Numbered from the stretch's first letter, positions 35,018 through 54,600 are shown. The stretch is 64,000 nucleotides of DNA from an uncultured Bifidobacteriaceae bacterium (GCA_964444085.1 CAYUGC010000001.1:9857-73856), one strand, 5' to 3'. Translations and numbers: made by a program. Notes: generated from the sequence alone by a model not told the origin.

Positions 35018-35043
35018 CAGCGGCAAAAAAACTACCAATCCAA

Positions 35044-38020: not shown

Positions 38021-39880
38021 ATGCACGAACCATTAAAAAATGGCAGCGTCCCGCTTTTGGCCAGCCAGCCGGCTTCCGCCAACGCTTTTCCGCCGGGAAA
38101 GTGCCTCCATGAATGGTTCGAGGTTCAGTCGGCCTGCACTCCCGACGCGACCGCGCTGACTTTTGAGCAACAGCATCTCACTTACCGCCAACTCAACGAA
38201 CGCGCCAACCAGCTCGCCCATCACCTGCGCCAGCTCGGCGTAAAACCAGAAACGCTCGTCGGCCTCTTCGTCGAACGCTCGCTGGATTTGCTCGTCGGCC
38301 TGCTCGGTATCCTCAAGGCCGGCGGCGCCTACGTGCCGATGGATCCGCAATACCCGCAGGCGCGGCTCGCGTTCATGATGCAGGACGCCGGCGCGGCGGT
38401 CATCGTCACCCAAGAAAATCTGGCGGCGCAGCATCCGATGCCGAATGCAAAATTGGTCTGCCTCGACACCGACTGGCCGACGATTGCCAGCGAGCCAAAA
38501 ACCAATCCGGCCAATTTCACCAAGCCGGAAAACCTAGCGTATGTCATTTACACGTCCGGCTCCACCGGCACGCCCAAAGGCTCGTTGATTTCGCACCACA
38601 ACGTCGTGCGGCTGTTTCAGGCCACGGAAAATTGGTTTCACTTCAATCAAGGCGATGTCTGGACGCTGTTTCATTCCAGCGCGTTTGATTTTTCCGTCTG
38701 GGAAATCTGGGGTGCGCTGCTTTACGGCGGCCGGCTGGTGGTCGTGCCGTTTCACACCAGCCGCTCGCCAGAAATTTTTCGTCGGCTTTTATGCGACGAA
38801 AAAGTGACGGTACTCAACCAGACGCCGTCGGCCTTCCGCCAGTTACTGCACGCCGATGAACTCGCGCCGGCCGGCGAAAAACTTTCCCTTCGTTATGTTA
38901 TCTTCGGTGGCGAGGCGCTGGATTTCAAAAGCCTGAAACCGTGGTTCAACCGCCACGGCGACGAGCAGCCGCAACTCGTGAACATGTATGGCATCACCGA
39001 AACCACGGTGCACGTCACCTATCGCCCCATCCGCGCGGCGGACACGGACAGCAGCAGCGTCATCGGCGTGCCGATTCCCGACCTGCAAATTTATCTGCTC
39101 GATGAAAATCGCCAGCCCGTGCCCGACGGCACGCCGGGCGAAATTTGCGTCGGCGGCACCGGTGTCGGGCGCGGTTATTTCAACCGGCCGGACCTCACGG
39201 CAAAAAAATTTATTTCAGATCCCTTTTCAGCAAATTCGGACAACCTGCTTTATTGTTCCGGCGATTTGGGTCGCTATCTTCCGAACGGCGATTTGGAATA
39301 TCTCGGACGCATTGACCAGCAGGTGAAGGTGCGGGGCTTTCGGATTGAACTGGGGGAGATTGAGACGGTGTTGAGCCAGCATCCAAGCCTGCGCGATAGC
39401 GTGGTCATCGCCCGGGATGACCAGCTTGGCGAGAAACAACTGGTGGCTTACGTCGTGCCCAAGGACAAGGCCCCGACGGTGATGGAATTGCGCGCGCACC
39501 TGATGCAGCGGTTGCCCGACTACATGGTGCCCGCCGCGTTCGTCACGCTGGATGTGTTGCCTCTAACAGAGCACGGCAAGTTGAACCGGCAGGCATTGAT
39601 TCAACAAGAAGAGGCGGTTGCATTAGCCACGGGTGTGACGTATCAGGCACCGCGCACGGAGTTGGAGTGGAAGCTGGTGGAAATTTGGCAAGGTGCGTTG
39701 CAGCGGGAAGGCATTGGCATCCGCGACGACTTCTTCGCACTTGGCGGACATTCCCTGCTGGTTTTCACCGTGATATCGCGGATCGCTGGAACGCTTAAAT
39801 TACAGTTGCCGGTCAGCATGCTATTCGAACACCGGACCATCGAGACGCTGGCCCGGCAAATCGAAGCCGACCGTTCAACC
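38021..39880 (+). other. NRPS module 1 (A-T); hand-read specificity code DFWNIGMVHK (Thr)
   Basis: Code residues read from FDFSVW, LNQTPS, VIFGGE, NMYGITETTVH and K520, by alignment to GrsA-PheA positions 235-517. No condensation domain precedes it. Boundaries approximate. Confidence 0.7.
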
Positions 39881-42800
39881 TTGGATAAAGCCCCGCCCCT
39901 GCCGCGAGCGGACCGGACGCAGCCGCTGCCCATGTCGGTGGGACAACAGCAACTGTGGTTGGTGCAACAAACCTTGCCGGATCCCGCCACCTACAACGAG
40001 CCAGTGGTCTATCATCTGCTTGGGTCGGTGGCGGTCGCTTGTCTCAAAAAATCTTTGGAAGCGATTTGGGAACGCCATGAAGTCCTGCGCACCGCCTTGG
40101 TTCAAGAAGGCGAATCCTTGGTGCAAAAAATCTTCCCGGCTAAAATGCTGGACCTGCCGTGGGAGGAGCTGGATCTGCGCGCAGTGCCGGCCAGCGAACG
40201 GCAGGTGGCAATGGAGCGGCACCTGATGGAAGTGAGCCGCCGGCCCTTTGATCTGGCGCAAGCGCCGTTATGGCGGGTGTTGTGGATGACGCTGGCGAAC
40301 CATGAGCATCAACTGGCTGTCATTTTCCATCACGCCATTGTTGACGAGTGGTCTGAACGTTTGTTTTTCGACGAGTGGCGCCGCTTGTATGCGGCGGAGG
40401 CGGACCCCGCGAAAGCGGGGCTGGCGGAGTTGCCGGTGCAATACGCCGATTATGCCGCATGGCAACGCTCACGGTTGACCGATGAATTTCTCCGGCGCGA
40501 ACGGGCTTACTGGTTGCAGCAACTCCAAAACATGCCGCCGCCGCTGAAATTGCCCGGCGACCAGTCGGCAGGCGGACGACGCAGCGGCCGGGGCGGAACC
40601 TATCGCTTTGAACTGTCTGGCCCCGTGGCTGAAAATCTGCGGAGCTGGGCGCAACAAGAGGGTGTGACCAACTTTGCCTGGATGCTGGCGGCGTTCCAGG
40701 CCTGGCTATATCGCTTTACGGGACAGGCGGACTTGGTGGTGGGATCGCCGGTGACTAACCGGGAGCAGCCCGAAACACAAAGTCTGTTCGGCTATTTTCT
40801 GAACACGCTGCCGCTGCGAATCCGGGTTGAAAAACAGGAGAGCCTTCGGGCATTTGCGCGCCGGGTCGGAAAAATGGTGCAGGCGGGGCTGGAGCACAAG
40901 GCCCTGCCCTTTGAGCAGATGGTGGCGATGGTGGCCCCGGAACCAGCCGGCGTTCGCGGGCCGATCTATCAAGTGATGTTCGTGCTGCTGGAACAAGGGC
41001 TGCCGCCGTGGAAACCGGCAGGAATCGAAGCCCGCCAGATTGACGCCGACACGCGCACGAGCAAGAACGACCTGACTTTGTTTGTTGAGGCGGAAGGGGC
41101 GGTTTGGAAATGTGCTTTGGAATATGCCGCCGAAGTGTTCACCGAGGAAGCGGCGGCCCGCACGGCAATTTACTTGCAGGAGTGGTTTGCTTCGCTCGCT
41201 GCCAATCCGGATGGAATGATCGAATGCCTGAACCTGTTGCCGGCGGCGGAACGACGCAAAATCCAAATGGAGTGGAATGCAACGGCGAGGGGGTATCCGC
41301 CGGACAAATGTGTGCATGAATTGTTTGAGGAACAGGTCGAGCGGACGCCGGAAGCGATCGCGCTGGAGTTCGAAGGACAGTCATTGACGTATCGGGAACT
41401 TAACCAGCACGCCAATCAACTGTCCCGGCATCTGAAAAAACTGGGCGTGGGTCCCGAGACGCTGGTGGGACTGTGCGTGGAACGCTCACCGGCGATGGTC
41501 GTAGGCTTGTTGGGCATTCTCAAGGCGGGCGGCGCGTATGTGCCGTTGGATCCAGATTATCCGAAAGCGCGGCTGGATTGGTTGCTGAAAAACGCGGCCA
41601 TAAAATGGTTGATAACCCAAACTCATCTCGCCAGCCGCTTCTCGCCGGCACAAAATCAAAACCTGATTTGCTTGGACCAGGCATCGTTCAATGAACCTAA
41701 AGACAATCTGAAGGTTCATGGCTCACCCAAAAACCTGGCCTACGTCCTCTTCACTTCCGGTTCCACGGGGTTGCCTAAGGGGGTTGCCATGGAACACGGT
41801 TCACTCGTCAACCTGCTGTGCTGGCAGGTGCAGCAAGCGCCCGCCCCGCAACGCACCCTCCAGTTCGCGTCAGTGTGTTTTGACGTGTCCTTTCAAGAAA
41901 TATTCTCGACTTTGATCAACGGCGGAACCTTGGTTTTGGTCAACCCGGCGGTGCGGTCAAATCCGGCGGAACTCTTTGAATTCATCCAAGCCCGGCGGCT
42001 GGAACGGCTTTTTTTACCGGTCGTCATGTTGCAGGAACTTGCGGAAGCCGCCCAGCAATCTTCCGGTGCCGCCGTCAACTTGAGGGACGTCATCACGGCC
42101 GGAGAACAACTGCGGATCACCCCGTCAATCCGCCGCTTTTTCGCGCGACACACAGCTTGTTTTTTGCACAATCACTACGGCCCGACCGAGTCCCATGTGG
42201 TGACCGCCCTGCCGCTGCCGAAAAATCCCAGTGATTGGCCCGAACTACCAGCGATTGGACGGCCGATTTTCAACACTACAATATATCTGCTGGACACCGA
42301 ACTTCAACCCGTGCCCATCGGGTTGGCCGGCGAGTTGTATATTGGCGGTGCCGGAGTGGCGCGAGGCTATCTGAATCGGCCAGACCTGACGGCGGAACGG
42401 TTCATCCCCGACCCCTTTTCGGCGAAGCCGGAAGCAAGGCTATACAAGACCGGGGATTTATGTCGTTACTTGCCTGACGGCAACATTGAATTTTTGGGGC
42501 GGATTGACCAACAGGTAAAAATCCGCGGGTTCCGCGTCGAACTGGGCGAAATCGAAGCGGTGCTGGGAACGCATCCGCAAGTGGCTGGTTGCGCGGTGGT
42601 GGCGCAGCAAAATGGCGGGGGAATTTTTTTGACTGCCTATGTGGTGACGCGCGCGGTCGCGCCGTTGACCGGGCCGGTATTGCGGGAGTGGTTGAGGGAA
42701 AAATTGCCGGATTACATGGTGCCGGCCCGGTTTGCAACCCTGCCCGCCCTGCCGCTCACGCCCAACGGAAAGCTTGACCGACAGGCATTGGGTCGGCTGG

Positions 42801-45800
42801 AGAACACAGTGGAACTGGCCGCCAGCGAAACGTATCAAGCCCCGCGCACGGAGTTGGAACGAAAACTGGTCGAAATTTGGCAAGGCCTATTGGGACGGGA
42901 AAGCATCGGCATTCACGACAACTTCTTCGCCCTCGGCGGCCATTCCCTGCTCGCCGTCAGATTGGTGTTCCGCATCCAGGAAGCCTTTGGCGTGAGCCTG
43001 CCGGTAAAGTTGGTATCCGAATGTCCCACCATCGCGGAGTTGAGTGAAGCGCTGGCGCGGCAGTCGCCAGTCAAAACCATTTCCATACCGCGTCGGCCAC
43101 GGAAAGTGGTGGGCGAACCGGCGCGTTATCCGGCGTCGTTCAGCCAGGAGCAGTTGTGGTTCATTGACCAATTGGAACCCGACAGCGCAGTCTATAACGT
43201 GCCGCTGGCGCTGCGTTTGCGCGGCGGGCTGGATCAGACGCGGCTGACGCAAAGTTTGAACCGGGTGATCGCGCGGCACGAGGCGCTGCGCACCATTTTC
43301 GCGGCGGAACAGGGCGTGCCGGTGCAAGTTGTCCGGCCCGAACTGAAGCTGCCTTTGGCGGTGACGGATTTGAGCGGCCAGCCCGACCCGGAGGTGGAGG
43401 CGCAACGGCTGATGTTACAGTCGGCGGGCAAGCCGTTTGACCTTCAGCGCGGGCCGCTAGTGCGGGCGGAGCTCTTCACGCTGGAGGCGGAAGACCAGAT
43501 ACTGTTGTTGACCATTCACCACATTGTGTTCGACGGGTGGTCCATTGACGTGCTGCTCAAAGATCTCGCCGCAGGTTATGCGGGCGAAAAACTTTTGCCG
43601 GCCTCGTTGCAGTATGGCGACTTCGCGGCCTGGCAGCGGGCGCACCTCACAACTCAAAAAGTGGAGCAACATCTGGCCTACTGGCGGGAACACCTGGCGG
43701 GCGTGCCGACCGTCCTCGAACTCCCCACCGACCAGCCCCGCAGCGGCGGTAGCCAGCGCGGTGCCCAACACTATTTCACCCTCCCGCTCGAGCTGACGGC
43801 CCAGCTCCGCGCCCTTGCCCAACAACATAACACCACTCTCTTCACCACCCTGTTGGCGGCGTTTCAGACGTTGCTGCACCGGTTTTCGGGGCAGCAATCC
43901 ATTCTGGTGGGTTCACCGATTTCAGGCCGTTTGCTGAACGAGAGCGAAAATTCCATCGGCTTCTTCGTGAACATGCTGCCGTTGAAGGCGGATTTTTCCG
44001 GCAACCCGGCTTTTTCAAATTTGCTGCAACAGGTTCATCAGAACGTTTGGGCGGCGCAAAGTCATCAGGAATTGCCGTTCGAAAGACTGGTTGCCGAGCT
44101 GCAGCCGCAGCGCGATCCGAACCGAAACCCGCTTTTCCAAGCCGCTTTCATCTTCGAAGTCGCGACGCCGCTGCTACCACAGATTCCCGGCCTGAAACTG
44201 GAGCTGGAACAAGTCCGGACGCCCACGGTCAAATTTGATCTGACGTTGACCCTGGCGGAAAAAGGCGGCGGCCTGCAATGTCTTTGGGAATATGCCGCCG
44301 GAACTTTTGGGACGGAAACCATTTCGCGCTGGTCGAAGTATTTTGAAACACTGCTGGTCTCGCTGGTCACAAATCCTGATTGCTTGATAAACGATTTGGA
44401 TTTGCTGCCTGCGGGCGAGCGTTCGCTTCTGCTCGGCGAGTGGAGTGCGACCGCCGGCGAGTATGCGCGCGGTGCGAGCGTGGCGGGGTTGTTTGTGGAG
44501 CAGGTGAAATTGCGGCCCAGTGCGGTGGCTTTAAGCTGGAGCGGCGGGCAGTTGAGCTACGGTGAACTCAATGAACGCGCCAACCAACTGGCGCATCATC
44601 TGCGTTCTCTGGGCGTGGGTCTGGAGACGCCCGTGGGTGTGTTGCTATCGCGCTCGGTGGACTATGTCGTCAGCGTGCTCGCCATCTTGAAGGCTGGTGG
44701 CGCGTATGTCCCGCTGGATTTGGAATATCCGGTGGAACGCCTGAAGTTCATGCTTGCCGACAGCGGCTGCAAGGTGGTTATTACCGCCCAGGATTTCAAA
44801 CTGTCCGGGGCGACGGAGTTGAACCTGGCTACGGCCGCGCCTTCCATCGCCGGTTGTCCGAAGGCCAATCTTGACTTGGTCAGCACGGCGGAATCGCTGG
44901 CCTATGTCATCTACACCTCCGGCTCCACCGGCCAGCCCAAGGGCGTCGCCATCCCCCAGCGCGGCGTGGTCCGTTTGGTGCGCGGCCAGACCTACGCTAG
45001 CTTTGATTCCTCCCAGCGCTTCCTGCTCTTGGCCGCCACCGCCTTTGACGCCAGCACCTTCGAGCTGTGGGCACCCCTGCTCAACGGTGGCGTCTGCGTC
45101 CTCTATCCCGAAGCGCTTGCCGATTACGCCCATCTGGAACAAGTGATCCGCGAACAGAACGTCACCTGTCTCTGGCTCACCGCCGGTTTGTTCAACCAGA
45201 TCATGGATGTTCGTCCTTCCGTCTTACAGACGATCAAACAGGTGCTGGCCGGCGGCGAGACCTTGTCCGTGGCCCATGTGCGCAAGGCGTTGAAACTCCT
45301 CCCGCACCTGCGCCTGACCAACGGCTACGGCCCCACCGAGTCCACCACCTTCGCCTGCACCTACGACCTTCCGCCGCACTTCACCGGCGCTTCGGTGCCC
45401 ATCGGCCGGCCCCTCGCCAACACCCAGTGCTATGTGCTCGATGCGCAGTTGCAGCCGGTGCCCGTCGGCGTGCCGGGCGAGCTTTACCTCGGCGGCGACG
45501 GCCTGGCGCGCGGCTACCTCAACCGGCCGGAGCTGACGGCGGAGAAATTTATCCCGAATCCATTCGACGCGAAAAACGCCACGCGCCTCTACCGGACGGG
45601 CGACCGGGTGCGCTGGCGGGCGGGCGGGAACCTCGAATTTTTGGGCCGCCTGGACAATCAGGTCAAGCTGCGCGGTTTCCGCATTGAACTGGGGGAGATC
45701 GAGTCGGTGTTGAACGGTCAGGCTGGCGTCCGCGCAAGCGTGGTGGTGGCGCGGGACAACCAGCTCGGCGAAAAACAGCTCGTCGCCTATGTCGTGCCCA

Positions 45801-47032
45801 AGGGGACACCGCCCACCGTCACGGAACTGCGGGAACATCTGCTCCAGCGGCTGCCCGACTACATGGTGCCCGCCATGTTCGTCACGCTGGAAGCGCTGCC
45901 GTTGACCGCCCACGGCAAGGTGGATCGCAACGCCCTGCCCACACCAGACTCCCGCCTCGAATCCGGTGCCGAGTTCACCGCCCCGCGCAATCCCACCGAA
46001 ACCAAACTTGCCGCCTTGTGGCAGGAACTCCTCGGCCTGAAGCAGATCAGCATCCACGACAACTTCTTCGCCCTCGGCGGCCATTCTCTGCTCGCGGTGA
46101 GGCTGGTCAATGAAATCAAGCGACAGATGTCTTTTGATCTGCCGATTCGAATGGTGTTCCAGCATCCGACGATTCAGGAATTGGCCAAAGTGTTGCCAGA
46201 GCAAAAAAACACCGCCCGCCGGCCCGAATTGATCCAGCTCCAGCCAGGCACCGCTGGCCCGGAGCTTTTTTTCCTGATTGATGAAGGCAGCCTCGGCCTG
46301 CTTAAGCTCGCGCATTTTCTCAACAAAGACCTGCGCCTGTATGCCTCAGTGGTGCCGATTCCCGAAACCACGTTGCGCGCGGCGGCGAAAAAAGACCTTT
46401 CTGCGCTGCCCCGCATGGAGGAGTGGGCGGCGAAACACGTTGCCCTCATCCGCAGCCGCAAAATCACCGGGCCCATCCGTCTCGCGGGCCATTGTTTCGG
46501 CGGGATGCTCGCCTTTGAGGTTGCCCGGCAGTTGCAGGCCGCCGGCGTCCGGGTGGAAACCGTATTGCTGCTCGACACCTGGATGATGATGCCGACTTTC
46601 TGGGGCGTGAAAAAGGCGTGGGTGAGCGAGCACTTCGGTAAACTTTTCCGGCAAGGCCCGAAATATCTCTGGCGCAAAAGCCGCCGCCGGATTGACATCG
46701 AAAAAAAGGAGCTGACCTCCCGCTTCGACCTCGCCTTCAGCGACGATTTCAACGTGCAAATCCCATGGGCCATCATCGCCCGGATTTACCGGCACGCCTT
46801 GCAGGGCTACCGGCCGGAGCCGCTGGCAACGCGGGGAATATTGTTCATCTCGCAGGACGACTGGATATCAAACGCCTTTCGCCCACAGGACAATACGCTC
46901 GGTGCCCGCCGCGTTTTTGGCGGCGGCGTGACGGTCGTGGATGTGCCCGGCAACCATGTGACCGTCCTGCAGGAAACCCACCTGCCGGCTCTCGCCGAAC
47001 ACTACAACCGGAATTTGAAGCCATCACCATGA
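38021..47032 (+). CDS. Three-module non-ribosomal peptide synthetase (A-T-C-A-T-C-A-T-TE)
   Basis: Three sets of adenylation core motifs (YTSGSTGTPKG / FTSGSTGLPKG / YTSGSTGQPKG; YGITE / YGPTE / YGPTE; GELxIGG; A10 Lys at aa 520, 1584, 2633). Three carrier motifs FFALGGHSLL (Ser 578, 1642, 2689). Two condensation His motifs (HHAIVDEWS at aa 770, HHIVFDGWS at aa 1833). C-terminal alpha/beta-hydrolase thioesterase with GHCFGG. Confidence 0.95.
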   Translation: MHEPLKNGSVPLLASQPASANAFPPGKCLHEWFEVQSACTPDATALTFEQQHLTYRQLNERANQLAHHLRQLGVKPETLVGLFVERSLDLLVGLLGILKAGGAYVPMDPQYPQARLAFMMQDAGAAVIVTQENLAAQHPMPNAKLVCLDTDWPTIASEPKTNPANFTKPENLAYVIYTSGSTGTPKGSLISHHNVVRLFQATENWFHFNQGDVWTLFHSSAFDFSVWEIWGALLYGGRLVVVPFHTSRSPEIFRRLLCDEKVTVLNQTPSAFRQLLHADELAPAGEKLSLRYVIFGGEALDFKSLKPWFNRHGDEQPQLVNMYGITETTVHVTYRPIRAADTDSSSVIGVPIPDLQIYLLDENRQPVPDGTPGEICVGGTGVGRGYFNRPDLTAKKFISDPFSANSDNLLYCSGDLGRYLPNGDLEYLGRIDQQVKVRGFRIELGEIETVLSQHPSLRDSVVIARDDQLGEKQLVAYVVPKDKAPTVMELRAHLMQRLPDYMVPAAFVTLDVLPLTEHGKLNRQALIQQEEAVALATGVTYQAPRTELEWKLVEIWQGALQREGIGIRDDFFALGGHSLLVFTVISRIAGTLKLQLPVSMLFEHRTIETLARQIEADRSTLDKAPPLPRADRTQPLPMSVGQQQLWLVQQTLPDPATYNEPVVYHLLGSVAVACLKKSLEAIWERHEVLRTALVQEGESLVQKIFPAKMLDLPWEELDLRAVPASERQVAMERHLMEVSRRPFDLAQAPLWRVLWMTLANHEHQLAVIFHHAIVDEWSERLFFDEWRRLYAAEADPAKAGLAELPVQYADYAAWQRSRLTDEFLRRERAYWLQQLQNMPPPLKLPGDQSAGGRRSGRGGTYRFELSGPVAENLRSWAQQEGVTNFAWMLAAFQAWLYRFTGQADLVVGSPVTNREQPETQSLFGYFLNTLPLRIRVEKQESLRAFARRVGKMVQAGLEHKALPFEQMVAMVAPEPAGVRGPIYQVMFVLLEQGLPPWKPAGIEARQIDADTRTSKNDLTLFVEAEGAVWKCALEYAAEVFTEEAAARTAIYLQEWFASLAANPDGMIECLNLLPAAERRKIQMEWNATARGYPPDKCVHELFEEQVERTPEAIALEFEGQSLTYRELNQHANQLSRHLKKLGVGPETLVGLCVERSPAMVVGLLGILKAGGAYVPLDPDYPKARLDWLLKNAAIKWLITQTHLASRFSPAQNQNLICLDQASFNEPKDNLKVHGSPKNLAYVLFTSGSTGLPKGVAMEHGSLVNLLCWQVQQAPAPQRTLQFASVCFDVSFQEIFSTLINGGTLVLVNPAVRSNPAELFEFIQARRLERLFLPVVMLQELAEAAQQSSGAAVNLRDVITAGEQLRITPSIRRFFARHTACFLHNHYGPTESHVVTALPLPKNPSDWPELPAIGRPIFNTTIYLLDTELQPVPIGLAGELYIGGAGVARGYLNRPDLTAERFIPDPFSAKPEARLYKTGDLCRYLPDGNIEFLGRIDQQVKIRGFRVELGEIEAVLGTHPQVAGCAVVAQQNGGGIFLTAYVVTRAVAPLTGPVLREWLREKLPDYMVPARFATLPALPLTPNGKLDRQALGRLENTVELAASETYQAPRTELERKLVEIWQGLLGRESIGIHDNFFALGGHSLLAVRLVFRIQEAFGVSLPVKLVSECPTIAELSEALARQSPVKTISIPRRPRKVVGEPARYPASFSQEQLWFIDQLEPDSAVYNVPLALRLRGGLDQTRLTQSLNRVIARHEALRTIFAAEQGVPVQVVRPELKLPLAVTDLSGQPDPEVEAQRLMLQSAGKPFDLQRGPLVRAELFTLEAEDQILLLTIHHIVFDGWSIDVLLKDLAAGYAGEKLLPASLQYGDFAAWQRAHLTTQKVEQHLAYWREHLAGVPTVLELPTDQPRSGGSQRGAQHYFTLPLELTAQLRALAQQHNTTLFTTLLAAFQTLLHRFSGQQSILVGSPISGRLLNESENSIGFFVNMLPLKADFSGNPAFSNLLQQVHQNVWAAQSHQELPFERLVAELQPQRDPNRNPLFQAAFIFEVATPLLPQIPGLKLELEQVRTPTVKFDLTLTLAEKGGGLQCLWEYAAGTFGTETISRWSKYFETLLVSLVTNPDCLINDLDLLPAGERSLLLGEWSATAGEYARGASVAGLFVEQVKLRPSAVALSWSGGQLSYGELNERANQLAHHLRSLGVGLETPVGVLLSRSVDYVVSVLAILKAGGAYVPLDLEYPVERLKFMLADSGCKVVITAQDFKLSGATELNLATAAPSIAGCPKANLDLVSTAESLAYVIYTSGSTGQPKGVAIPQRGVVRLVRGQTYASFDSSQRFLLLAATAFDASTFELWAPLLNGGVCVLYPEALADYAHLEQVIREQNVTCLWLTAGLFNQIMDVRPSVLQTIKQVLAGGETLSVAHVRKALKLLPHLRLTNGYGPTESTTFACTYDLPPHFTGASVPIGRPLANTQCYVLDAQLQPVPVGVPGELYLGGDGLARGYLNRPELTAEKFIPNPFDAKNATRLYRTGDRVRWRAGGNLEFLGRLDNQVKLRGFRIELGEIESVLNGQAGVRASVVVARDNQLGEKQLVAYVVPKGTPPTVTELREHLLQRLPDYMVPAMFVTLEALPLTAHGKVDRNALPTPDSRLESGAEFTAPRNPTETKLAALWQELLGLKQISIHDNFFALGGHSLLAVRLVNEIKRQMSFDLPIRMVFQHPTIQELAKVLPEQKNTARRPELIQLQPGTAGPELFFLIDEGSLGLLKLAHFLNKDLRLYASVVPIPETTLRAAAKKDLSALPRMEEWAAKHVALIRSRKITGPIRLAGHCFGGMLAFEVARQLQAAGVRVETVLLLDTWMMMPTFWGVKKAWVSEHFGKLFRQGPKYLWRKSRRRIDIEKKELTSRFDLAFSDDFNVQIPWAIIARIYRHALQGYRPEPLATRGILFISQDDWISNAFRPQDNTLGARRVFGGGVTVVDVPGNHVTVLQETHLPALAEHYNRNLKPSP
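39920..43076 (+). other. NRPS module 2 (C-A-T); hand-read code DVQFIAHVVK (Pro-like)
   Basis: Code residues read from FDVSFQ, LFLPVV, VITAGE, NHYGPTESHVV and K1584. One position differs from the canonical Pro code DVQLIAHVVK. Boundaries approximate. Confidence 0.65.
43126..46211 (+). other. NRPS module 3 (C-A-T); hand-read code DAFWLGGTFK (Val)
   Basis: Code residues read from FDASTF, LWLTAG, VLAGGE, NGYGPTESTTF and K2633. Boundaries approximate. Confidence 0.7.
46222..47029 (+). other. NRPS thioesterase domain with Cys in the nucleophile-elbow position
   Basis: GxSxG position reads G-H-C-F-G (codon tgt at 46493-46495, aa 2825). Candidate catalytic His in VDVPGNHVTVL near the C-terminus. 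Confidence 0.75.
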
Positions 47033-47778
47033 GCGCGCCGCCGCCGGCCGTCTGGCGCAAAATTTCCAAAATCCCGCCCGTCGCCCCGGCGGAAATTCAC
47101 GTCTGGCGGATTAACCTCCTCTGCCCGCTGGCAGAAATCGCGCGGCTGCAAAATGTTTTATCCGCCGCCGAAAAAAAACAGTCAGCGCGCTATCATTTCG
47201 CCCATGACCAGAGGCGTTTCATCGTTCGCCGCGCCGTTTTGCGGCAATTGCTGGCCGCCCAGCTTGGCCTGCATCCGGAAGAAATCAAAATTGATTCCGC
47301 CAATTTTCAAAAACCAAAAATTGCCGCTACGCAAAATTCTGACGGACTGCGGTTCAGCTCCAGCCACTCCGCCGACTGGGCGCTGATTGCCCTCGCGCAA
47401 AATCGCGAGGTGGGCGTGGATGTGGAACAGCACCGGCCCCTGCCCGACGCCGGTGACCTGGTGCGGAATTCTTTCTCGGATTTTGAAATCGCCGAATTTG
47501 AGCGCCTGCCCGAACCGGCGCGAACGGAAGGATTTTTCAACTGCTGGACGCGCAAGGAGGCGTTCGTGAAAGCCATCGGCCTCGGGCTGGCGTATTCGCT
47601 CAAAAAATTTTCCGTCACGCTGGCACCGGGTCGGCCCGCCGCGCTGGTGGACGTGGCCGGCGATTCCGTCGCGCGCAAAAAATGGCTCATGGCTTCCCTG
47701 AACGTTGCGCCCGCCCACTCAGCGGCGCTGTTTTTTGAGGCCGGGCCATCGGCCATCCGCTGTTTTGCATGGCATTGA
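47029..47778 (+). CDS. Sfp-type 4'-phosphopantetheinyl transferase
   Basis: ATGA overlap with the NRPS stop. Motifs GVDVEQH and FFNCWTRKEAFVKAIG (W/F-x2-KEA-x2-K). Confidence 0.85.
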   Translation: MSAPPPAVWRKISKIPPVAPAEIHVWRINLLCPLAEIARLQNVLSAAEKKQSARYHFAHDQRRFIVRRAVLRQLLAAQLGLHPEEIKIDSANFQKPKIAATQNSDGLRFSSSHSADWALIALAQNREVGVDVEQHRPLPDAGDLVRNSFSDFEIAEFERLPEPARTEGFFNCWTRKEAFVKAIGLGLAYSLKKFSVTLAPGRPAALVDVAGDSVARKKWLMASLNVAPAHSAALFFEAGPSAIRCFAWH

Positions 47779-48654: not shown

Positions 48655-49218
48655 TTAAAGCAAAGATTTGACCACGGTTTGATGGAGCAGATTTTTAACT
48701 TCAATTCGCTCCGGGATGACATTTTTTTGAACAAGTGTTTTAAGAACGGCGTTGAGCCATTCACGAGACACCTCAATTGTGCCAAGCTCGAACTCTGGAA
48801 TTTTGCCCTCTTCCTGCAAAAGCCGAAAGTTTGAAAGCCTGATTTGGATACCCTCCTTCTCCCCTTTCAAATCAAGTTCCGCGCTGATGATCCGGTTTTC
48901 TTTGTCGATTTCCAGCGCAGTCATCTTCCCATATTTCTTTAAAACGCCGCTGTTGATTTCTGCTCTGATTTTTTGAATTTGCGCCCCCCTCGGCAACATC
49001 CTGAAAAAGATAATTTTAAGCGTATCCACCAATCCGTCGCTGGCTTTGAATAAGTCCGAAAATTGCATGGGGTCCAATATGGATGTGGCTAGGGTTTGCG
49101 GCAAGTCTCCCATTTGTGAGAACACCGATGCCAACACTGGAAATGGAACCCCGTTGGCGGTTGAATATGTTTTCGGTGCCAAGCAAATCACGCGAATGAG
49201 AGATGCTTGGATGGTCAT
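48655..49218 (-). CDS. Hypothetical protein
   Basis: ORF in the lower-GC stretch. No recognisable motif. Alternative starts at Met36 or Met51 are possible. Confidence 0.35.
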   Translation of the reverse strand: MTIQASLIRVICLAPKTYSTANGVPFPVLASVFSQMGDLPQTLATSILDPMQFSDLFKASDGLVDTLKIIFFRMLPRGAQIQKIRAEINSGVLKKYGKMTALEIDKENRIISAELDLKGEKEGIQIRLSNFRLLQEEGKIPEFELGTIEVSREWLNAVLKTLVQKNVIPERIEVKNLLHQTVVKSLL

Positions 49219-49595
49219 GGATGCGGGCGGGCGTCAGACACAATTCAATTTGTTTTACGACCTCCCTCAACCCGGCCAAGTTCAAACCTTCACCTGGCCT
49301 GTGGCCACAGCCGCGCTTGTTTCGATGAGATACATCTCGTCGTCAGCAAGCGGTTTGCGGCTCCATTCTACATCCTCAATCTTCAACCCTCGCTTTGCCA
49401 TTTGCGTCTTCTGTGCCTTTTTGCGGCTATAAATCCGTGCCCATTCGTGGTTAAAAGTTGATTCGTCGTGGTCGGGACGGTGCCAGCCCTGCGCCGTCCG
49501 CTGTCAGGCGCTTCCCCGTCTTCCGCCGGACGGCTTACGTCCGTTGCGGGATGCCTCCCCGCGCGCCGGTTAGTGTCTCTGTATCTGCAACTGCC

Positions 49596-49715
49596 TTTCG
49601 GGTTCATGGAGTACCGACAACCTATGTTCTCGACCAGCAAGGGAAAGTCGTGTGGGCAGGCCATCCCTCAGGTATGACATTTGTGAAAGTGGTGGCGGGC
49701 CTTTTGAAGCCATAA
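49596..49715 (+). pseudogene. Remnant of the C-terminus of a TlpA/ResA-like thioredoxin-fold protein
   Basis: Translation FRVHGVPTTYVLDQQGKVVWAGHPSG resembles the V-x-G-x-PT-x-x-x-ID-x-x-G-K-I-V end of TlpA-family proteins. No CxxC-bearing N-terminal part is present upstream in frame. Confidence 0.35.
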
Positions 49716-49735
49716 ACCAGTCCCAATCATTTACA

Positions 49736-50194
49736 TCAGTATTTAGTCCCCAAACTTACCAGATGCTCTTCAAAATACCCGGCCAGATTCATAATGGTCC
49801 CAAGCTGTAGTTTTGCGGGTGAGTCTGGTTTTTGGTGGATGTCCTCCGGTTCTCCCAATTCTCTCCAAGCTCCGGTTCTGGTGTCATTGAGGATCTGCAA
49901 CAAAATCTCTTTGTATTCCGGCTTCAACTTTAGCGCCCAGATTCCAGCTTTTTCACTTAAGCATTCCTTCGCCAATTTTTCCGCCGCCTTTTTCAACTCA
50001 CCCCGATGCTGTGTCAAAGATATGTTCAACAGATTCTCCCGGTCAAACGACTCCGCATCATGGTTTCCCTTCGACATCCTGGCCGGAAGCAGCTTTGTGA
50101 ACGGGAAATTTGTGAGCAGGGCCTTCAGCACCTCTGCCTCTTTTTGCTGAAGTTCGTATTCCCATCGATCACCTGTCTGGTTAAGCAATTTCAT
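49736..50194 (-). CDS. Small ClpS-coupled protein (possibly DUF2017-like)
   Basis: ATGA overlap with the clpS stop. Helical, acidic. ILNDTRTGAWRELG and NLAGYFEEHLVSL resemble, from memory, the ClpS-neighbour family DUF2017. This assignment is tentative. Confidence 0.4.
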   Translation of the reverse strand: MKLLNQTGDRWEYELQQKEAEVLKALLTNFPFTKLLPARMSKGNHDAESFDRENLLNISLTQHRGELKKAAEKLAKECLSEKAGIWALKLKPEYKEILLQILNDTRTGAWRELGEPEDIHQKPDSPAKLQLGTIMNLAGYFEEHLVSLGTKY

Positions 50195-50493
50195 TCCGCC
50201 GGCTCCATTGTTGCCTGAAGTTTGTATTTATGGAGCTGGTGAACGTAAAACTCGGCCTTCTCCGCACCTTCCCTGGTCAGCACACTCTTTCCTTTTTCAT
50301 GCACCTCCATCATGTGTTTTTCCGCCTTCTGCCTGTTCCAACCAAAGATTTTCATGAAGACGTGGGTGACATAAACCATCAGATTCACGGGGTCGTTCCA
50401 ACAGATGACATAAAAGGTGGGTGCCAGATCATCGTCGGACTCGGGCTTTTTCCTGAGGACCGGTTTCGTGACTGGTTCTAAAACGGTCGGCAT
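50191..50493 (-). CDS. clpS: ATP-dependent Clp protease adaptor ClpS
   Basis: FYVICWNDPVNLMVYVTHVFMKIFGWNRQKAEKHMMEVHEKGKSVL matches the ClpS core. About 100 aa. Confidence 0.8.
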   Translation of the reverse strand: MPTVLEPVTKPVLRKKPESDDDLAPTFYVICWNDPVNLMVYVTHVFMKIFGWNRQKAEKHMMEVHEKGKSVLTREGAEKAEFYVHQLHKYKLQATMEPAE

Positions 50494-50495
50494 TA

Positions 50496-51836
50496 TTATG
50501 CAAGTTTCGCAAGCTTTTCACGAACGTAATCAATATGGCCGCGCAGCACATAAAACCGGTCGGCAAACGATGCTGGCACCTTGATCCGTTTCACCGCCTT
50601 TTCAATCTCATCCAGCCGTTCGTGCATTTCCTTCCGTTTGGCCGGCGTTATTTCCCGGACAAGCTCCCGCTCCAGCACCAGCAACGCGCGATACCACCGG
50701 TAAAGGCGCAACTGGATCCGCCATTTATAGGTCGCCGGAATCAACCGCAGGCCGGGGATCAGCACCAGCATCATCGGAATAAAAGCCACGAGGATGCGGT
50801 TGGCCAGGCTTGCAATCCAGAACGGAAGCTCGCGATACAAGAACGTCTTGCCGGACTTGTAGTAACGGCTGGCATCCGGGCTAATCCTAAATTCATGTTC
50901 TTTTGGATTGGGGAACTCACCCTGATTTTGGAGCATGCTGGCGTTCCCATGAACTTCGCGGGCCGCTTCCAGCAATAAATCTGACACCGCCGCATTCAAC
51001 TTTGGCCGGGCCACGAGTTCCACGGTCGGTCCGATGAGCCAAACATCTTGCCCCGGCAGGTTTTTGCCGAAATCGATGAAACCTTCTGGCAGGCGCAGCT
51101 TGTTCAAATAGTTGAACCGCCGGGTGTAGGCGTCTGCCTGTTCAAAACTTAATAGCTGAATTCCTGGTGACCGCAGCAACATTCGCATGGTTTGTGACGA
51201 GGCTGAATCGCTCATCATAAACACCGCGTCAACGGTTCCGGCCAACAGCTGCTTCGCGGCGGCGTTCGCATCCAAATCCAGCAACTGGGTTATTCCATCA
51301 GCGGTGAGGCCGTTCGTCTGGAGCAAGGTCAAGGCTAGCGAATGGGTTCCACTCCCAACCGAACCGATGGCCAGCTGCTTCCCAGCCAGCCCAGACAGCA
51401 GGCTTATGTTTGTATTGCCACGGTAGAATATGAGCAGCGGTTCGTAGGCGATGTTTCCGAGCGAAATCAAATTCTGGGTGTTTGTGCCATCCGCCACACC
51501 GCCCTGAACGAAGCCGACATCCACCCGTGAGGTGGGGGCTTCCAAGCGCTGAAGGTTTTCCAGCGAGCCTTGCGAGGGAATGATTTCCAACGTCACGCCA
51601 TTGCGGGCGAGAATGTCCCGATACTTTTCGGCATTTCTTTCGAAGGTGCTTCCCGGCGGGCCGCTGGTGATGGTGAGGATGCGTGGCGGGGCCGAATGAA
51701 TGAACCAGTAAATCGCAAAGCAGCTGATGAGGCTGATAAAGCAGACCACGATAAGCGACAGGCTCCAACTCAGCCCAAAATTCTCCGTGAAGATGGCCAC
51801 GATCCGGGACAGGCTGAATTTGCGTTCGGTTTTCAT
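50496..51836 (-). CDS. TAXI-family (TRAP-type) solute-binding-like protein with N- and C-terminal TM segments
   Basis: LTITSGPPGSTFERNAEKY...IIPSQGSLENLQRL...VDVGFVQGGVA resembles TAXI receptors. C-terminal TM helices and a coiled tail. Start moved to the internal ATG (MKTERKF). Confidence 0.6.
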   Translation of the reverse strand: MKTERKFSLSRIVAIFTENFGLSWSLSLIVVCFISLISCFAIYWFIHSAPPRILTITSGPPGSTFERNAEKYRDILARNGVTLEIIPSQGSLENLQRLEAPTSRVDVGFVQGGVADGTNTQNLISLGNIAYEPLLIFYRGNTNISLLSGLAGKQLAIGSVGSGTHSLALTLLQTNGLTADGITQLLDLDANAAAKQLLAGTVDAVFMMSDSASSQTMRMLLRSPGIQLLSFEQADAYTRRFNYLNKLRLPEGFIDFGKNLPGQDVWLIGPTVELVARPKLNAAVSDLLLEAAREVHGNASMLQNQGEFPNPKEHEFRISPDASRYYKSGKTFLYRELPFWIASLANRILVAFIPMMLVLIPGLRLIPATYKWRIQLRLYRWYRALLVLERELVREITPAKRKEMHERLDEIEKAVKRIKVPASFADRFYVLRGHIDYVREKLAKLA

Positions 51837-52024
51837 GCAACCATTTTCAATCACAATAACAACACCGGCAGGATAATGGTTTTGCCAAGCATCGCAATCA
51901 ATCACCATCAAGCCATCCAAATCGGATTGAGCGTCGTTGAACTTGTCCAAATTCTAGGGCAATCCCTCATCATGGACATCGATCTGACTGGGTTCTCTGC
52001 CAACAAAGACATGCGCTTTTCGAT

Positions 52025-52348
52025 TTGTTAATTCTGGCCATGTATGCTGATGGACACCTTTCATCGGCTAAAGATGAACAATTGCAGAAATTGTTGGCTG
52101 GAATGGGATTTGTTGAGGAACCAGATAGCCAACGTGAATTTGATGCGGCTGTGACCAGGATCAGGCCCAGCATTCAATCCATTCACAAAGCCAAGGAGCT
52201 GGCTTTGGGTTTGGCTGATGAATTCACCGCTCGTCCGCAACACAAGCAGGTATTTGCAGCCGTAGAGCAGATTATGACCTTTGACAACAACATCAGCACT
52301 TTGGAAAACACATTGCTGATGGAACTGCGGATGAAATTCAGGTTGTGA
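52025..52348 (+). CDS. TerB-like small protein (possibly frameshifted at its 5' end)
   Basis: LILAMYADGHLSSAKDEQL and a second half FDNNISTLENTLLMEL fit the two-repeat ADG-x-E pattern of TerB-family proteins. Only a TTG start is available. The upstream ORF end MDIDLTGFSANKDMRFSIC lies in the adjacent frame. Confidence 0.35.
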   Translation: MLILAMYADGHLSSAKDEQLQKLLAGMGFVEEPDSQREFDAAVTRIRPSIQSIHKAKELALGLADEFTARPQHKQVFAAVEQIMTFDNNISTLENTLLMELRMKFRL

Positions 52349-52459
52349 ATGGGAAGTGCGGTTTCCTCATTAAAACCAGCAGTTTTATCTTGGTGAATGC
52401 TTTTGAACTAGCTTTAATGGGCCTGCGGTAAACATTCATACAAATAACACAATAAAATC

Positions 52460-52750
52460 ATGGCCAAAGCACTGACCAAATCCCAAATCGTATCTGCCAT
52501 CGCAGACAAAAACAGCCTCACCAAAAAGCAAGCTGGCGAGATCCTGGAACAACTCGCCTGTCTCGCTTACAAACATGCCAAGGACTCGTTCACCATCCCT
52601 GGTCTCGGCAAGCTCGTTCTGGTCAATCGCAAGGCCCGCATCGGCCGTAATCCTGCTACTGGGGAAACGATCCAAATCAAGGCCAAGAAAGTCGTGAAGT
52701 TCCGCGTCGCCAAAGCTGCCAAAGACGCGATTCTTGGTGTGAAGAAATAG
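52460..52750 (+). CDS. hup: HU family DNA-binding protein
   Basis: MAKALTKSQIVSAIA...GKLVLVNRKARIGRNPATGETIQIKAKKVVKFR has the beta-arm RNPxTGE signature. 96 aa. Confidence 0.85.
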   Translation: MAKALTKSQIVSAIADKNSLTKKQAGEILEQLACLAYKHAKDSFTIPGLGKLVLVNRKARIGRNPATGETIQIKAKKVVKFRVAKAAKDAILGVKK

Positions 52751-52766
52751 TTTTGGATTTCATTCA

Positions 52767-52798
52767 AAGGCACCCTGTTCATTCAGGGTGCCTTTTTT
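52767..52798 (+). terminator. Rho-independent terminator after hup
   Basis: aaaggcaccctg ttcattc agggtgcctttttt. Confidence 0.75.
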
Positions 52799-52986
52799 CC
52801 ATCAGTGATCACCTTGTTGATGAAAGATGAAACAACTGCTGTTGACGCTGAAAAAAGTAAGCCTGGCAGGGCGGGGTTTTAGCAGGCTCGTCAAATACTG
52901 GCTTGAACAACTTTAAACGACTCAATTTGACTTGGGCTAGTTGTTGGTTTTGACAGAAAAACCAATGCCCCTTTGAACATAAAGGA

Positions 52987-53061
52987 TGGTGCGCGCTGCA
53001 GGTTTCGAACCTGCGACCCCTACCGTGTGAAGGTAATGCTCTACCACTGAGCTAAGCGCGC
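52987..53061 (-). tRNA. tRNA-Val (anticodon CAC)
   Basis: Reverse complement folds as a cloverleaf: GCGCGCT-TA-GCTC-AGTGGTA-GAGC-A-TTACC-TTCACAC-GGTAG-GGGTC-GCAGG-TTCGAAA-CCTGC-AGCGCGC-A-CCA. 75 nt, encoded CCA, anticodon loop TTCACAC. Confidence 0.9.
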
Positions 53062-53184
53062 AAAAACTGGCGAATTTGCCCCAAAAACCCGTTCGCAAGC
53101 GGACAAGAGACTAGCGGGCGCCGCCAGTTGTGGCAAGGTTTTTTAGGACGGGCGGGCCAAACCGTGCGACGGCGGCAAGGCGGC

Positions 53185-53616
53185 TCATTTCCATTCAAAA
53201 TCATGCCCGCCGTGGATTTTTCCGGCGGTCAGCAGCAGGTGGTAGGTGACGTTGTTGGTCAGAGCTTGCGGACGGGTGCCCGGCACCGCCGGCTTGAGGC
53301 CGCGGATGAACTGGCCGTAGAAAAAAGTTTTGACCGGCGCAGAATTGGAATCCGAAACGAGGTGCCAGAGCGGCAGCGTGTTTTGATTGGTCTGATACGC
53401 CGCGAGCGGCACGATCCGGATTTCGGTGAGCCGGAGCGGGCGGTCCAGGCCGAACATCAGGTTGGGCAACGCGCCGGTGCGCGCCGCCGGTCGCAGGTCG
53501 CGGCTGGTGTGAAATATCCGCACGGTCTGGGGCTGAAACCAGTTCGTGAAGCCGGCAAGGTAAACCGCCGCCAGCACCAGTGTGCCGGCGATCAGCAGCC
53601 AAGTTTTTCGTTCCAT
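53185..53616 (-). CDS. Hypothetical membrane-anchored protein
   Basis: N-terminal TM WLLIAGTLVLAAVYLAGF. No family recognised. Confidence 0.4.
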   Translation of the reverse strand: MERKTWLLIAGTLVLAAVYLAGFTNWFQPQTVRIFHTSRDLRPAARTGALPNLMFGLDRPLRLTEIRIVPLAAYQTNQNTLPLWHLVSDSNSAPVKTFFYGQFIRGLKPAVPGTRPQALTNNVTYHLLLTAGKIHGGHDFEWK

Positions 53617-53693
53617 GGTGAATATATTGTAACGTGGCGACAATTTGAGGCGTCGAACTGCATGAGCCAGACGTCCGCCAGTCCGCCGTGGTT

Positions 53694-54497
53694 ATGAAAA
53701 TCTGCCCAGTTCAAGATCCGCGCCCTAGCCGGGAAGGTTTTTTCCCCGGCCAGTGGCGGGCTTTCACGCTAATCGAACTGCTGGTGGTCATCGCCATCAT
53801 CGCCATTCTGGCGGCCATGCTGCTGCCGGCCTTGAGCCGCGCGAAGGAAACTGCGCGGCGCATTTCGTGCATGAACAATCTCCGGCAGTTGGGTCTCGCC
53901 TCGCGCCTATATGTGGACGAAAACCAGGGGACTTATCCAACGCGTTCCGGCACCGACCGCTGGCCAGACAAATTCTACGACAACTACGGCAAGAGCGCCA
54001 AGCTGCTGCTCTGCCCGACCGACGGTCTCAACGGAATCATTCCCCAAACCGGCGGCAGTTCCAACAACGTGGCCGACGCCGCGCCGCGCAGCTACCTGAT
54101 CAACGGCTGGAACGATTGGTATGCCGACCACATCGGCACCACGGCTTTTCCGGCGGTGGAAGCGGCCGCAGCTCGAAACGGGTTGAAGGAAAACGCCATC
54201 GTTTATCCCAGCGACACCGTGGTGCTGGGGGAGAAAATCTCGGACGCGGGCGATTACTACATGGATCTTTTTGAAAACCCGCAGGTCGGTGGCAACGACG
54301 CCAGCGTGGCTGAACAATGCCGCCACGACAACCGCAACGCCAGCTCGCTGGCGAACGGCCAAAGCGGCTCCGGCGGCTCGGATTACGCGATGGCTGACGG
54401 CAGTGCGCGGTTCATCAAATATCCGCAGGCGGTGTCGCCGCTTCATCTCTGGTGCGTGACCGACACCAACCGCGGGTTGAACGCCTGGAAGTTTTGA
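53694..54497 (+). CDS. Prepilin-type N-terminal cleavage/methylation domain protein (pseudopilin-like, DUF1559-style)
   Basis: [26 protein letters not shown] class III signal. C-terminal ...[14 protein letters not shown] block, common in planctomycete/verrucomicrobial pseudopilin-like proteins. Confidence 0.75.
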
Positions 54498-54600
54498 GTC
54501 TGGGCGACAGAGACAAACTTAAATTGCCGTGAGCGTGGGATTTATCGTAACTTGTGGTTTGCCAGCACAGTCTGCTTTGGCGAATTAAACCATCAATTTT

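Follow-up and report, generated by a model that had tools for sequence, protein, structure and literature searches.

A cysteine-nucleophile thioesterase at the end of a short peptide synthetase in a PEP-CTERM/exosortase polysaccharide locus

The canonical type I thioesterases, among them those of EntF, SrfA-C, NocB, Vlm2 and the tautomycetin pathway, stand behind the last carrier domain of their synthetases and share a fold in which the catalytic triad has fixed places, with a Ser nucleophile after strand beta5, an Asp after beta6 and a His after beta8. Here we describe a thioesterase with the same fold, the same post-carrier placement and candidate residues at the same triad positions, which differs in having Cys for Ser and a lid of unrelated sequence. 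It forms the C-terminal end of a peptide synthetase of the non-ribosomal kind (NRPS) encoded in a stretch of 64,000 nucleotides from an uncultured Bifidobacteriaceae bacterium (GCA_964444085.1 CAYUGC010000001.1:9857-73856), which at its full length we refer to as the window. A Cys nucleophile is also used by the alpha/beta-hydrolases SyrC and CmaE, which are acyl shuttles that move aminoacyl groups between carrier proteins by way of a Cys thioester; these are stand-alone proteins, whereas the thioesterase described here is fused to its synthetase.

Among synthetase-borne thioesterases Cys has been called less common, and AB3403 of Acinetobacter baumannii (ABBFA_003403, the A1S_0115 orthologue; PDB 4zxh/4zxi) has been counted as the third structural example (PMC11298585). 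The AB3403 operon produces Ac-505, which is unusual and lipopeptide-like, and influences biofilm formation and surface motility (PMC5376624). The other two enzymes, ObiF (obafluorin) and SulM (sulfazecin), form an acyl-thioester enzyme intermediate, whose retained high acyl-transfer potential is the rationale given for ObiF (PMC6668435), and they need a beta-hydroxyl or a sulfamated beta-amino group on the residue that is released (PMC11298585, PMC6668435). Their catalytic Asp lies on the loop after beta7 with none after beta6, where ObiF has Gly (PMC11298585, PMC6668435), whereas the acid of AB3403 and EntF is at the canonical place after beta6 (PMC6668435, PMC11298585). Following PMC11298585, we refer to these two places as position I (after beta6) and position II (after beta7). 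SulM has, in addition, a Gln-Cys-Asn motif at its nucleophile and a last adenylation (A) domain specific for diaminopropionate, two features by which SulM-type enzymes were mined (PMC11298585).

On balance, we favour the interpretation that the thioesterase of the window is an ordinary chain-release enzyme acting through a peptidyl-thioester, that its Cys is a lineage variant of Ser, and that it is not a cyclase of the ObiF/SulM type. The domain identity, the position and conservation of the Cys, the substrate prediction, the relationship of Ser and Cys forms, and the conservation of the locus were all computed here; the Asp of the triad and the nucleophile that effects release we infer.

The thioesterase domain and its catalytic residues

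The residues and regions that bear on catalysis are as follows, A1 being an alignment of the window's sequence with 20 database homologues.

46205..47029, plus strand: thioesterase domain, the C-terminal ~275 residues of the synthetase (Pfam PF00975, AlphaFold2 model, Foldseek)
46493..46495, plus strand: tgt, Cys2825, the nucleophile, in GHCFGG (sequence, PDB alignments, model, homologue codons)
46574..46576, plus strand: gac, Asp2852, in LLLDTW, after beta6 (position I); aligns with the Asp of AB3403 (VMIDTR)
46856..46861, plus strand: gac gac, Asp2946-Asp2947, in ISQDDW, on the loop after beta7 (position II-like; D219 of alignment A1, secondary structure)
46955..46957, plus strand: cat, His2979, in PGNHVT, the catalytic His after beta8 (invariant H251 in A1; aligns with the PGDH motif of AB3403)

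A sequence-only reading of this DNA had proposed a thioesterase domain with a Cys nucleophile, and this is borne out by profile, structure-database alignments and model alike. PF00975 matches at 68.5 bits over the whole protein and at 75.5 bits over its last 327 residues (cut-off 26.4), and a PP-binding domain lies directly upstream, which is the placement of a type I thioesterase at a synthetase C-terminus. The tgt codon had been correctly assigned to Cys2825, which is residue 2825 of 3003 amino acids (aa) and lies inside IRLAGHCFGGMLAFEVAR, with the local motif LAGHCFGG. When all PDB chains were searched with phmmer, the Cys2825 column paired with the Cys of AB3403 (GGWCFGG) and with the GxSxG Ser of the 7r0x polyketide synthase thioesterase (AGYSMGG), the tautomycetin thioesterase (AGHSSGG) and the NocB thioesterase (GGWSFGG). 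Residues 2729-3003 were modelled with AlphaFold2 at a mean predicted local distance difference test score (pLDDT) of 90.5 and a predicted TM-score (pTM) of 0.89, and in the model Cys2825 lies between strand 91-96 and helix 98-112 (domain numbering), as expected of a strand-turn-helix nucleophile elbow. No alternative GxSxG motif is present in the thioesterase domain and the Cys aligns with four solved nucleophiles, so that the nucleophile assignment of the sequence-only reading stands.

It had also been raised that the Cys codon could be a sequencing error. However, a Cys codon is present at the homologous position in 11 independent assemblies (the window, L001-L008, L081 and L082; L denotes genome loci and P denotes NRPS protein representatives), as TGT in nine and TGC in two, and the codons flanking it differ synonymously between them. 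There is no break in the reading frame, the core motifs are all kept and the model is confident; nothing was found in favour of either an error or an inactive, decayed domain, and we regard an artefact of this sort as scarcely credible. Cys97 and His251 (domain numbering) are invariant in A1, with Cys in all 20 homologues, GHCFGG is kept in about 30 protein clusters, and G-[HQY]-C-F-x-G is present in every protein or locus that scores above ~260 bits with a thioesterase-only profile. Judged from this sequence conservation, the Cys position is under selection.

Asp2852 is most likely the catalytic acid, as judged by alignment. It is kept in nearly all Ser and Cys relatives, and Asp124 (domain numbering) is present in at least 90% of A1. 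Together with the Cys it reproduces the arrangement of AB3403, which likewise has a Cys nucleophile in G-x-C-F-G-G and an Asp after beta6 in x-x-x-D-T (GGWCFGG...VMIDT compared with AGHCFGG...LLLDT in the window). By sequence, AB3403 is the best match among solved structures, both for the domain alone (E 7.8e-9) and for a carrier-thioesterase profile (151 bits). It differs in that the identity is ~23-30%, the lid is shorter and of different sequence, and the enzyme is a single C-A-T-TE module (C, condensation; T, carrier; TE, thioesterase) that receives its substrate from an acyl carrier protein and belongs to a lipopeptide-like pathway with no exosortase context.

In a Foldseek search with the model, the top matches were type I thioesterases, with Vlm2 first (E 1.4e-14), AB3403 third, and the tautomycetin, NocB and Pks13 enzymes also among them, as well as DEBS and FAS; TM-scores were 0.53-0.62 across all type I thioesterases and do not discriminate between them. 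The lid stretch (domain residues 126-200) is basic, with 15 Lys/Arg against 7 Asp/Glu, and its YLWRKSRRRI motif is nearly invariant within the Cys clade described below. Identity of the domain as an exosortase-A-associated hydrolase was considered and rejected, as there was no match; at E up to 0.01, NCBIfam gave Pks13 and EntF and nothing else.

Cysteine and serine forms among relatives

To place the Cys among related enzymes, a library of representatives was searched with a profile built from A1. This profile retained carrier-domain columns (376 positions) and its top 150 matches were mostly giant multi-carrier synthetases; all library matches were therefore re-scored with the thioesterase-only profile. 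Outside the window's clade, NRPS representatives 3000 aa or more in length gave 117 thioesterase matches, of which 15 have Cys and 102 have Ser as the nucleophile, and among 80 genome loci the counts are 32 Cys and 63 Ser, although both sets were retrieved with Cys-containing queries and thus overestimate the frequency of Cys. On these sequence counts, Cys thioesterases are a numerous minority. The earlier statement that they are rare thus holds for characterised examples and does not hold for sequences, the solved AB3403 also being of the Cys type.

In a neighbour-joining tree there are at least five separate Cys groups, including those with GWCVGG (gammaproteobacterial metagenome-assembled genomes, MAGs), GLCAGG (cyanobacteria), GHCYGG and GYCMGG, and isolated Cys cases (L015, L024) fall inside Ser groups. 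From the tree, Cys appears to have arisen several times independently. The window's thioesterase belongs to a monophyletic, all-Cys group, represented in the tree by 13 sequences and nested inside a mostly Ser group. Nine of the 13 come from species-representative genomes, and L001-L008, all of this clade, are the best of the 80 loci, L001 being 95% identical to the window. The genomes are essentially all MAGs of Limisphaerales (Verrucomicrobia subdivision 3) from peat, bog and soil. We place the window in this group too, as DNA of an uncultured peat-soil member of the Limisphaerales (Verrucomicrobiota). AB3403 is not the sister group and does not join this clade in the tree, where the clade's nearest relatives are Ser-type; the Cys that the two share is probably convergent, to judge by the tree.

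The nearest relatives outside the Cys clade have GHSFGG, at 33-37% identity and 130-190 bits with the thioesterase-only profile. This Ser-type sister clade (L009-L013, L086/L087, P0049 and P0150), which is uncharacterised, likewise ends short A/T/C synthetases that are followed by a phosphopantetheinyl transferase; L086/L087 have the same whole exosortase locus as the window, and L010 has a PEP-CTERM gene after the transferase. It differs from the Cys clade in its Ser nucleophile and in lacking the IDEGSLGL, YLWRKSRRRI and SQDDW motifs. Asp2947 is near-invariant only within the Cys clade, and the Asp2946/Asp2947 pair is absent from the Ser sister clade. Because the Cys clade is nested within Ser relatives, and because a Ser orthologue occupies the same slot of the same locus, we interpret the Cys as a lineage-specific replacement of Ser within one orthologous thioesterase family, and by itself no sign of new chemistry.

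Four of the large NRPS representatives (P0033, P0034, P0039 and P0064) each have two Cys-type thioesterase-like domains with GYCFGG. In the internal one (~residue 1050-2400) Asn replaces Asp at the post-beta6 acid; the C-terminal one has Asp.

The synthetase, its predicted product and the proposed mode of peptide release

The synthetase and the elements that bear on its product are these.

38021..47032, plus strand: NRPS gene, a 9012-base open reading frame (ORF) of 3003 aa (ORF list, translation, Pfam)
Within 38021..47032, plus strand: carrier serines Ser578, Ser1642 and Ser2689 (motif positions)
46085..46087, plus strand: Ser2689, phosphopantetheine site of the last carrier domain (GGHSL motif and PP-binding match)
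Residues 770 and 1833, plus strand: C-domain motifs HHAIVDE and HHIVFDG, respectively (NRPS translation)

The architecture is A-T-C-A-T-C-A-T-TE, with three AMP-binding, two Condensation, three PP-binding and one Thioesterase match in Pfam. Mapping the three A domains onto GrsA-PheA gave, in order, the specificity codes DFWNIGMVHK, DVQFIAHVVK and DAFWLGGTFK, which by the established Stachelhaus codes we take to be Thr, Pro and Val; as a control, the GrsA sequence used returned the published code DAWTIAAICK. The Thr-Pro-Val assignment of the sequence-only reading thus agrees with all three codes. Since the synthetase has neither a starter C domain nor an epimerisation domain, it is predicted to make unacylated Thr-Pro-Val, probably all-L, with the N-terminus free. 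The predicted route to the thioesterase is from the last carrier domain, at Ser2689.

Two further features of the synthetase were observed. The first condensation domain (residue 770, window 40328) has HHAIVDE in place of the usual HHxxxDG, the second being canonical (HHIVFDG). An identical stretch, IHDNFFALGGHSLLAVRLV, is present in carrier domains T2 and T3 (in the regions of window 42944 and 46085), and repeats of this type between modules are the probable reason for the breaks inside the NRPS in most related metagenome contigs (L001-L003, L081).

We propose that Ser2689 would carry L-Thr-L-Pro-L-Val, with its N-terminus free, and that the tripeptide would pass to Cys2825, with His2979 and most likely Asp2852 activating the Cys, to give a peptidyl-thioester enzyme. 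The thioester would then be resolved by an external nucleophile, itself activated by His2979 with Asp2852; by default this would be water, releasing the linear tripeptide, and possibly it would be a dedicated acceptor. More generally, thioesterases of this family terminate short NRPS cassettes of 2-3 modules, which vary greatly and lie inside a PEP-CTERM/exosortase polysaccharide locus.

The closing of a four-membered beta-lactone or beta-lactam ring, as by ObiF and SulM, is very improbable here. Those enzymes have in common with this one the Cys nucleophile and, as we propose, the acyl-thioester enzyme intermediate; SulM too releases a tripeptide, and Asp2946/Asp2947 lie after beta7, 32-33 residues before the His as compared with 30 in ObiF and SulM. 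However, the C-terminal Val offers neither a beta-hydroxyl nor a beta-amino group, and the beta-hydroxy residue, Thr, is N-terminal, which upholds the doubt already voiced on this point in the sequence-only reading. Asp2852 occupies the canonical position I, where ObiF has Gly and from which the acid of both enzymes is displaced, His-Cys-Phe replaces Gln-Cys-Asn, the terminal A domain is not specific for diaminopropionate, and Ser orthologues exist. Similarity is also slight: neither enzyme is among the 53 PDB matches to the domain alone at E up to 1 or in the Foldseek top 50, and with the carrier-thioesterase profile ObiF1 scores 43.8 bits, compared with 151 for AB3403, over its carrier domain and the N-terminal half of its thioesterase, while SulM is not in the top 60.

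The peptides predicted for members of the Cys clade vary considerably.

Window: Thr-Pro-Val
L083: Thr-Val
L084: Thr-Val-Val
L005: Cys-Val-(DIWHFGQIDK), the last code having no amino-acid assignment
L082: Val-Thr-Asn
P0024: Val-Gly
P0025: C-A(Val)-T-TE
L004: Leu at the end
L007: aminotransferase-C-A(Cys)-T-TE

The clade's peptides are di- or tripeptides whose last residue is Val, Leu, Cys, Gly, Asn or unassigned. Since a single thioesterase type handles both di- and tripeptides, which differ at either end, these predicted peptides favour an external nucleophile, and a fixed intramolecular ring closure seems unlikely. An invariable Thr or Cys at the start of exosortase-linked cassettes, as for a ligation chemistry, was considered and ruled out by Val-Thr-Asn in L082 and by P0021 and P0024, which start with Val.

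For the same reasons we think it unlikely that the thioesterase cyclises or oligomerises its substrate, be it to a Thr side-chain lactone, a head-to-tail cyclotripeptide or, by iteration, a Thr-Pro-Val cyclodimer. Thr would provide a side-chain nucleophile and Pro a turn, the thioester retains high acyl-transfer potential, as reasoned for ObiF (PMC6668435), and the top Foldseek match is the oligomerising valinomycin thioesterase Vlm2. That match is not discriminating, given the uniform TM-scores, and near-identical thioesterases of the clade handle di- and tripeptides that begin with various residues, one of them Val, whose side chain offers no nucleophile. Moreover, nine- and ten-membered rings are strained and uncommon.

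Two loci in the set above deserve comment. The synthetase of L083 (3728..9589, minus strand, 1953 aa) and that of L084 (593..9589, minus strand, 2998 aa) have the same neighbours and an identical PEP-CTERM protein. We do not take the pair as proof of recent module gain or loss, as the Val modules of L084 are 91% identical to each other and assembly collapse in L083 is also possible. In L007 (52..5628) the Cys thioesterase ends a module that follows a class-III aminotransferase domain, in a hybrid of polyketide/beta-amino-acid type; no exosortase is nearby, and the Cys clade is therefore not confined to exosortase-linked cassettes.

The exosortase locus and the possible fate of the peptide

The genomic context, absent from the sequence-only reading, places the synthetase within a PEP-CTERM/exosortase polysaccharide locus, whose main elements are listed here.

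47029..47778, plus strand: Sfp/HetI-type phosphopantetheinyl transferase (ACPS and AASDHPPT_N in Pfam); its start overlaps the NRPS stop (ATGA)
36957..37613, minus strand: PEP-CTERM protein of 218 aa with a signal peptide (translation, motif scan), divergent from the NRPS
30317..31891, plus strand: exosortase of the EpsH family (PF09721, 132 bits; TIGR04178, 54.3 bits, cut-off 23)
24226..36711, plus strand: polysaccharide block with GT4 glycosyltransferases, a WcaF-like acetyltransferase, the exosortase, a further GT4, a WecA-like phosphotransferase and a TPR protein (Pfam, NCBIfam)

The phosphopantetheinyl transferase scores 147.6 bits with NCBIfam HetI, below the HetI cut-off. The PEP-CTERM gene is on the strand opposite to the NRPS and ~400 bp upstream of it; between the two there are no promoter-like sites and one terminator-like site, which is fewer than expected by chance. 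Its product ends in VPEPSTVVAGVLLLLPFGVSTVRILRKDKVS and has the C-terminal sorting signal VPEPSTVVAGVLLLLPFGVSTVRILRK, comprising VPEPS, a hydrophobic helix and a basic tail. Upstream of this gene is a polysaccharide locus of ~27 kb, preceded by an AraC-type regulator gene; polysaccharide export genes, including Wza-like and Wzc-like ones, begin at about 9.7 kb, the locus also has an ABC transporter and many glycosyltransferases, and the TPR protein of the block is PrsT-like. An exosortase, a protein with a sorting signal and polysaccharide genes are thus present in one locus, as in PEP-CTERM/exosortase systems. No named exosortase (Xrt) subtype reaches its cut-off, the best being XrtD at 125 bits against 400. 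The exosortase is 524 aa long, with a C-terminal extension of ~240 residues, and may belong to an undescribed Verrucomicrobiota subtype.

Farther downstream, the G+C content of window ~49200..54600 is 0.50-0.53, compared with 0.58-0.62 around it, and the segment encodes NMT1-like and DUF1559/N-methyl (prepilin-like) proteins. Its ~5.4 kb corresponds to ~1.5 kb in L001 (between L001 3083 and 4628), and it may be an insertion.

Judged by linkage, the locus is kept in at least six lineages (the window, L005, L082, L083/L084, L085 and L086/L087). A phosphopantetheinyl transferase homologue follows the thioesterase in L001-L007, L010, L081-L084, L086 and L087, which is every related locus with sequence at that place, and the polysaccharide block is syntenic in L005, L082 and L083-L087. 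In L005 and L082, whose thioesterases are 63-64% identical to that of the window, the PEP-CTERM homologue is likewise divergent from the NRPS (39% identity, E 5e-29), and the exosortase block is on the other side, beyond the phosphopantetheinyl transferase and on the opposite strand. Since the block is inverted to the other side of the NRPS in these two, the adjacency has survived rearrangement. The reverse test started from homologues of the PEP-CTERM protein, of which three with long contigs were inspected (76, 59 and 50% identity). All three have glycosyltransferases, acetyltransferase, exosortase, GT4, WecA-like, TPR, PEP-CTERM and NRPS genes in order. The NRPS ends in a thioesterase followed by the phosphopantetheinyl transferase where the contig continues (L083, L084, L086, L087); that of L085 stops inside the first A domain.

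The locus slot is not reserved for the Cys form. In L086/L087 (1995..9575, minus strand) it holds a synthetase of the order Cys-(A-less module)-Asn that ends in a Ser-type thioesterase (GHSFGG, 179 bits). The exosortase and the WecA-like protein of these loci are 69% and 82% identical to those of the window, compared with 55% and 60% for L005, which has a Cys thioesterase. By these gene orders and identities, Ser-type and Cys-type cassettes share one slot of one conserved system, and it seems, by analogy with variable surface-antigen loci, that the NRPS or thioesterase cassette has been exchanged independently of the surrounding locus.

Two sets of PEP-CTERM proteins were noted. The divergent gene defines a family of ~215-245 aa, always divergent from the NRPS, in the window, L005 (546..1277, minus strand), L082 (988..1686, minus strand) and L083-L087 (10001..10693/10642, plus strand, locus orientation). 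It has 62 database homologues, and neither of the two members scanned (window, L005) has a match in Pfam or NCBIfam; this family may be the dedicated exosortase substrate of the locus. Small PEP-CTERM proteins of ~100-130 aa are encoded directly after the phosphopantetheinyl transferase, on the minus strand, in L004 (4490..4786), L005 (11651..12046), L010 (7116..7424) and L082 (12167..12496), L010 being a Ser-type locus; two of the four have Pro/Cys-rich repeats (PPCPPPCPPP). No such gene follows the window's own phosphopantetheinyl transferase.

This setting brings in the most serious rival to simple hydrolysis, which we hold possible rather than probable, namely that the peptidyl group on Cys2825 is transferred to a dedicated acceptor of the exosortase/polysaccharide pathway, such as the amino or hydroxyl group of a lipid-linked sugar, so that the peptide would come to sit on the cell envelope. 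Aminolysis is favoured by a thioester intermediate, the thioesterase of Pks13, which passes an acyl chain to trehalose, is among the Foldseek matches, and the Cys hydrolases SyrC and CmaE are themselves acyl shuttles. The NRPS and phosphopantetheinyl transferase have stayed beside the PEP-CTERM/exosortase block in those six or more diverged lineages, some of them inverted, and small PEP-CTERM genes directly follow the transferase in four loci. The lid keeps its sequence and basic character across peptides that differ by lineage (Thr-Pro-Val, Thr-Val-Val, Cys-Val-X, Val-Thr-Asn), a variation like that of surface-structure loci, and L083 and L084 differ by one module beside an identical PEP-CTERM protein, with the caveat of assembly collapse. 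On the other side, gene linkage is no proof of a shared pathway, no NRPS-specific acceptor-handling enzyme was identified, and L006 and L007 have thioesterases of the clade with no exosortase within 10 kb. As Ser-type orthologues do the same job, the Cys itself is no evidence for transfer.

A small-molecule precedent for such linkage is provided by N-acyl amino acid synthases, whose genes are described as linked to PEP-CTERM/exosortase systems (Craig, Cherry and Brady 2011, as cited in PMC7293339). In that citing account they represent genes for small amino-acid-derived molecules kept beside PEP-CTERM/exosortase and polysaccharide genes; they differ from the synthetases here in being GNAT-like acyltransferases whose products are N-acylated single amino acids. 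Our literature search found no link between an NRPS and an exosortase, the co-mentions, where checked, being citations of Craig et al. 2011.

Several points thus weigh against chain release by water through a canonical triad. The conserved basic lid, in spite of varied peptides, and the fixed exosortase locus fit transfer to an acceptor at least as well as hydrolysis. The triad geometry is taken from alignment and secondary structure, and Asp2946/Asp2947 lie after beta7, where ObiF and SulM carry their acid, so that position II may be used instead. Finally, no member of the clade has been characterised biochemically, and nor has the thioesterase of AB3403 (PMC11298585, PMC5376624). Nevertheless, we keep hydrolysis as the default for short linear peptides, with acceptor transfer as its serious rival, cyclisation or oligomerisation less likely than either, and four-membered ring formation effectively excluded.

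The Cys thioesterase is therefore real but less special than first proposed, being an uncharacterised new member of a known Cys-nucleophile class of type I thioesterases. On its own it carries modest weight, adding a well-populated Cys clade with the acid at the canonical position. The natural pair of Ser and Cys orthologues in one genomic setting is, however, a clean system for the effect of a Ser-to-Cys change on hydrolysis versus acyl transfer. The context weighs more, since in several Limisphaerales lineages an NRPS cassette that is short, diversifies rapidly and has a phosphopantetheinyl transferase of its own is a fixed neighbour of a PEP-CTERM protein and an exosortase/polysaccharide operon. 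A bolder proposal, which we offer tentatively and think rather unlikely, is that the peptide is a building block of the PEP-CTERM/exosortase system, loaded by the thioesterase, Cys or Ser, onto a precursor of the envelope, for example a lipid-linked sugar. If so, the peptide, once exported, would be a decoration of the polysaccharide, or else it would offer its free amine as the acceptor to which the exosortase attaches PEP-CTERM proteins, in parallel with the peptide cross-bridge used by sortases, and exosortase biology would have its first NRPS-dependent step. A dedicated supply of small peptides beside an exosortase is a concrete and testable lead on the acceptor and the chemistry of exosortase-mediated sorting.

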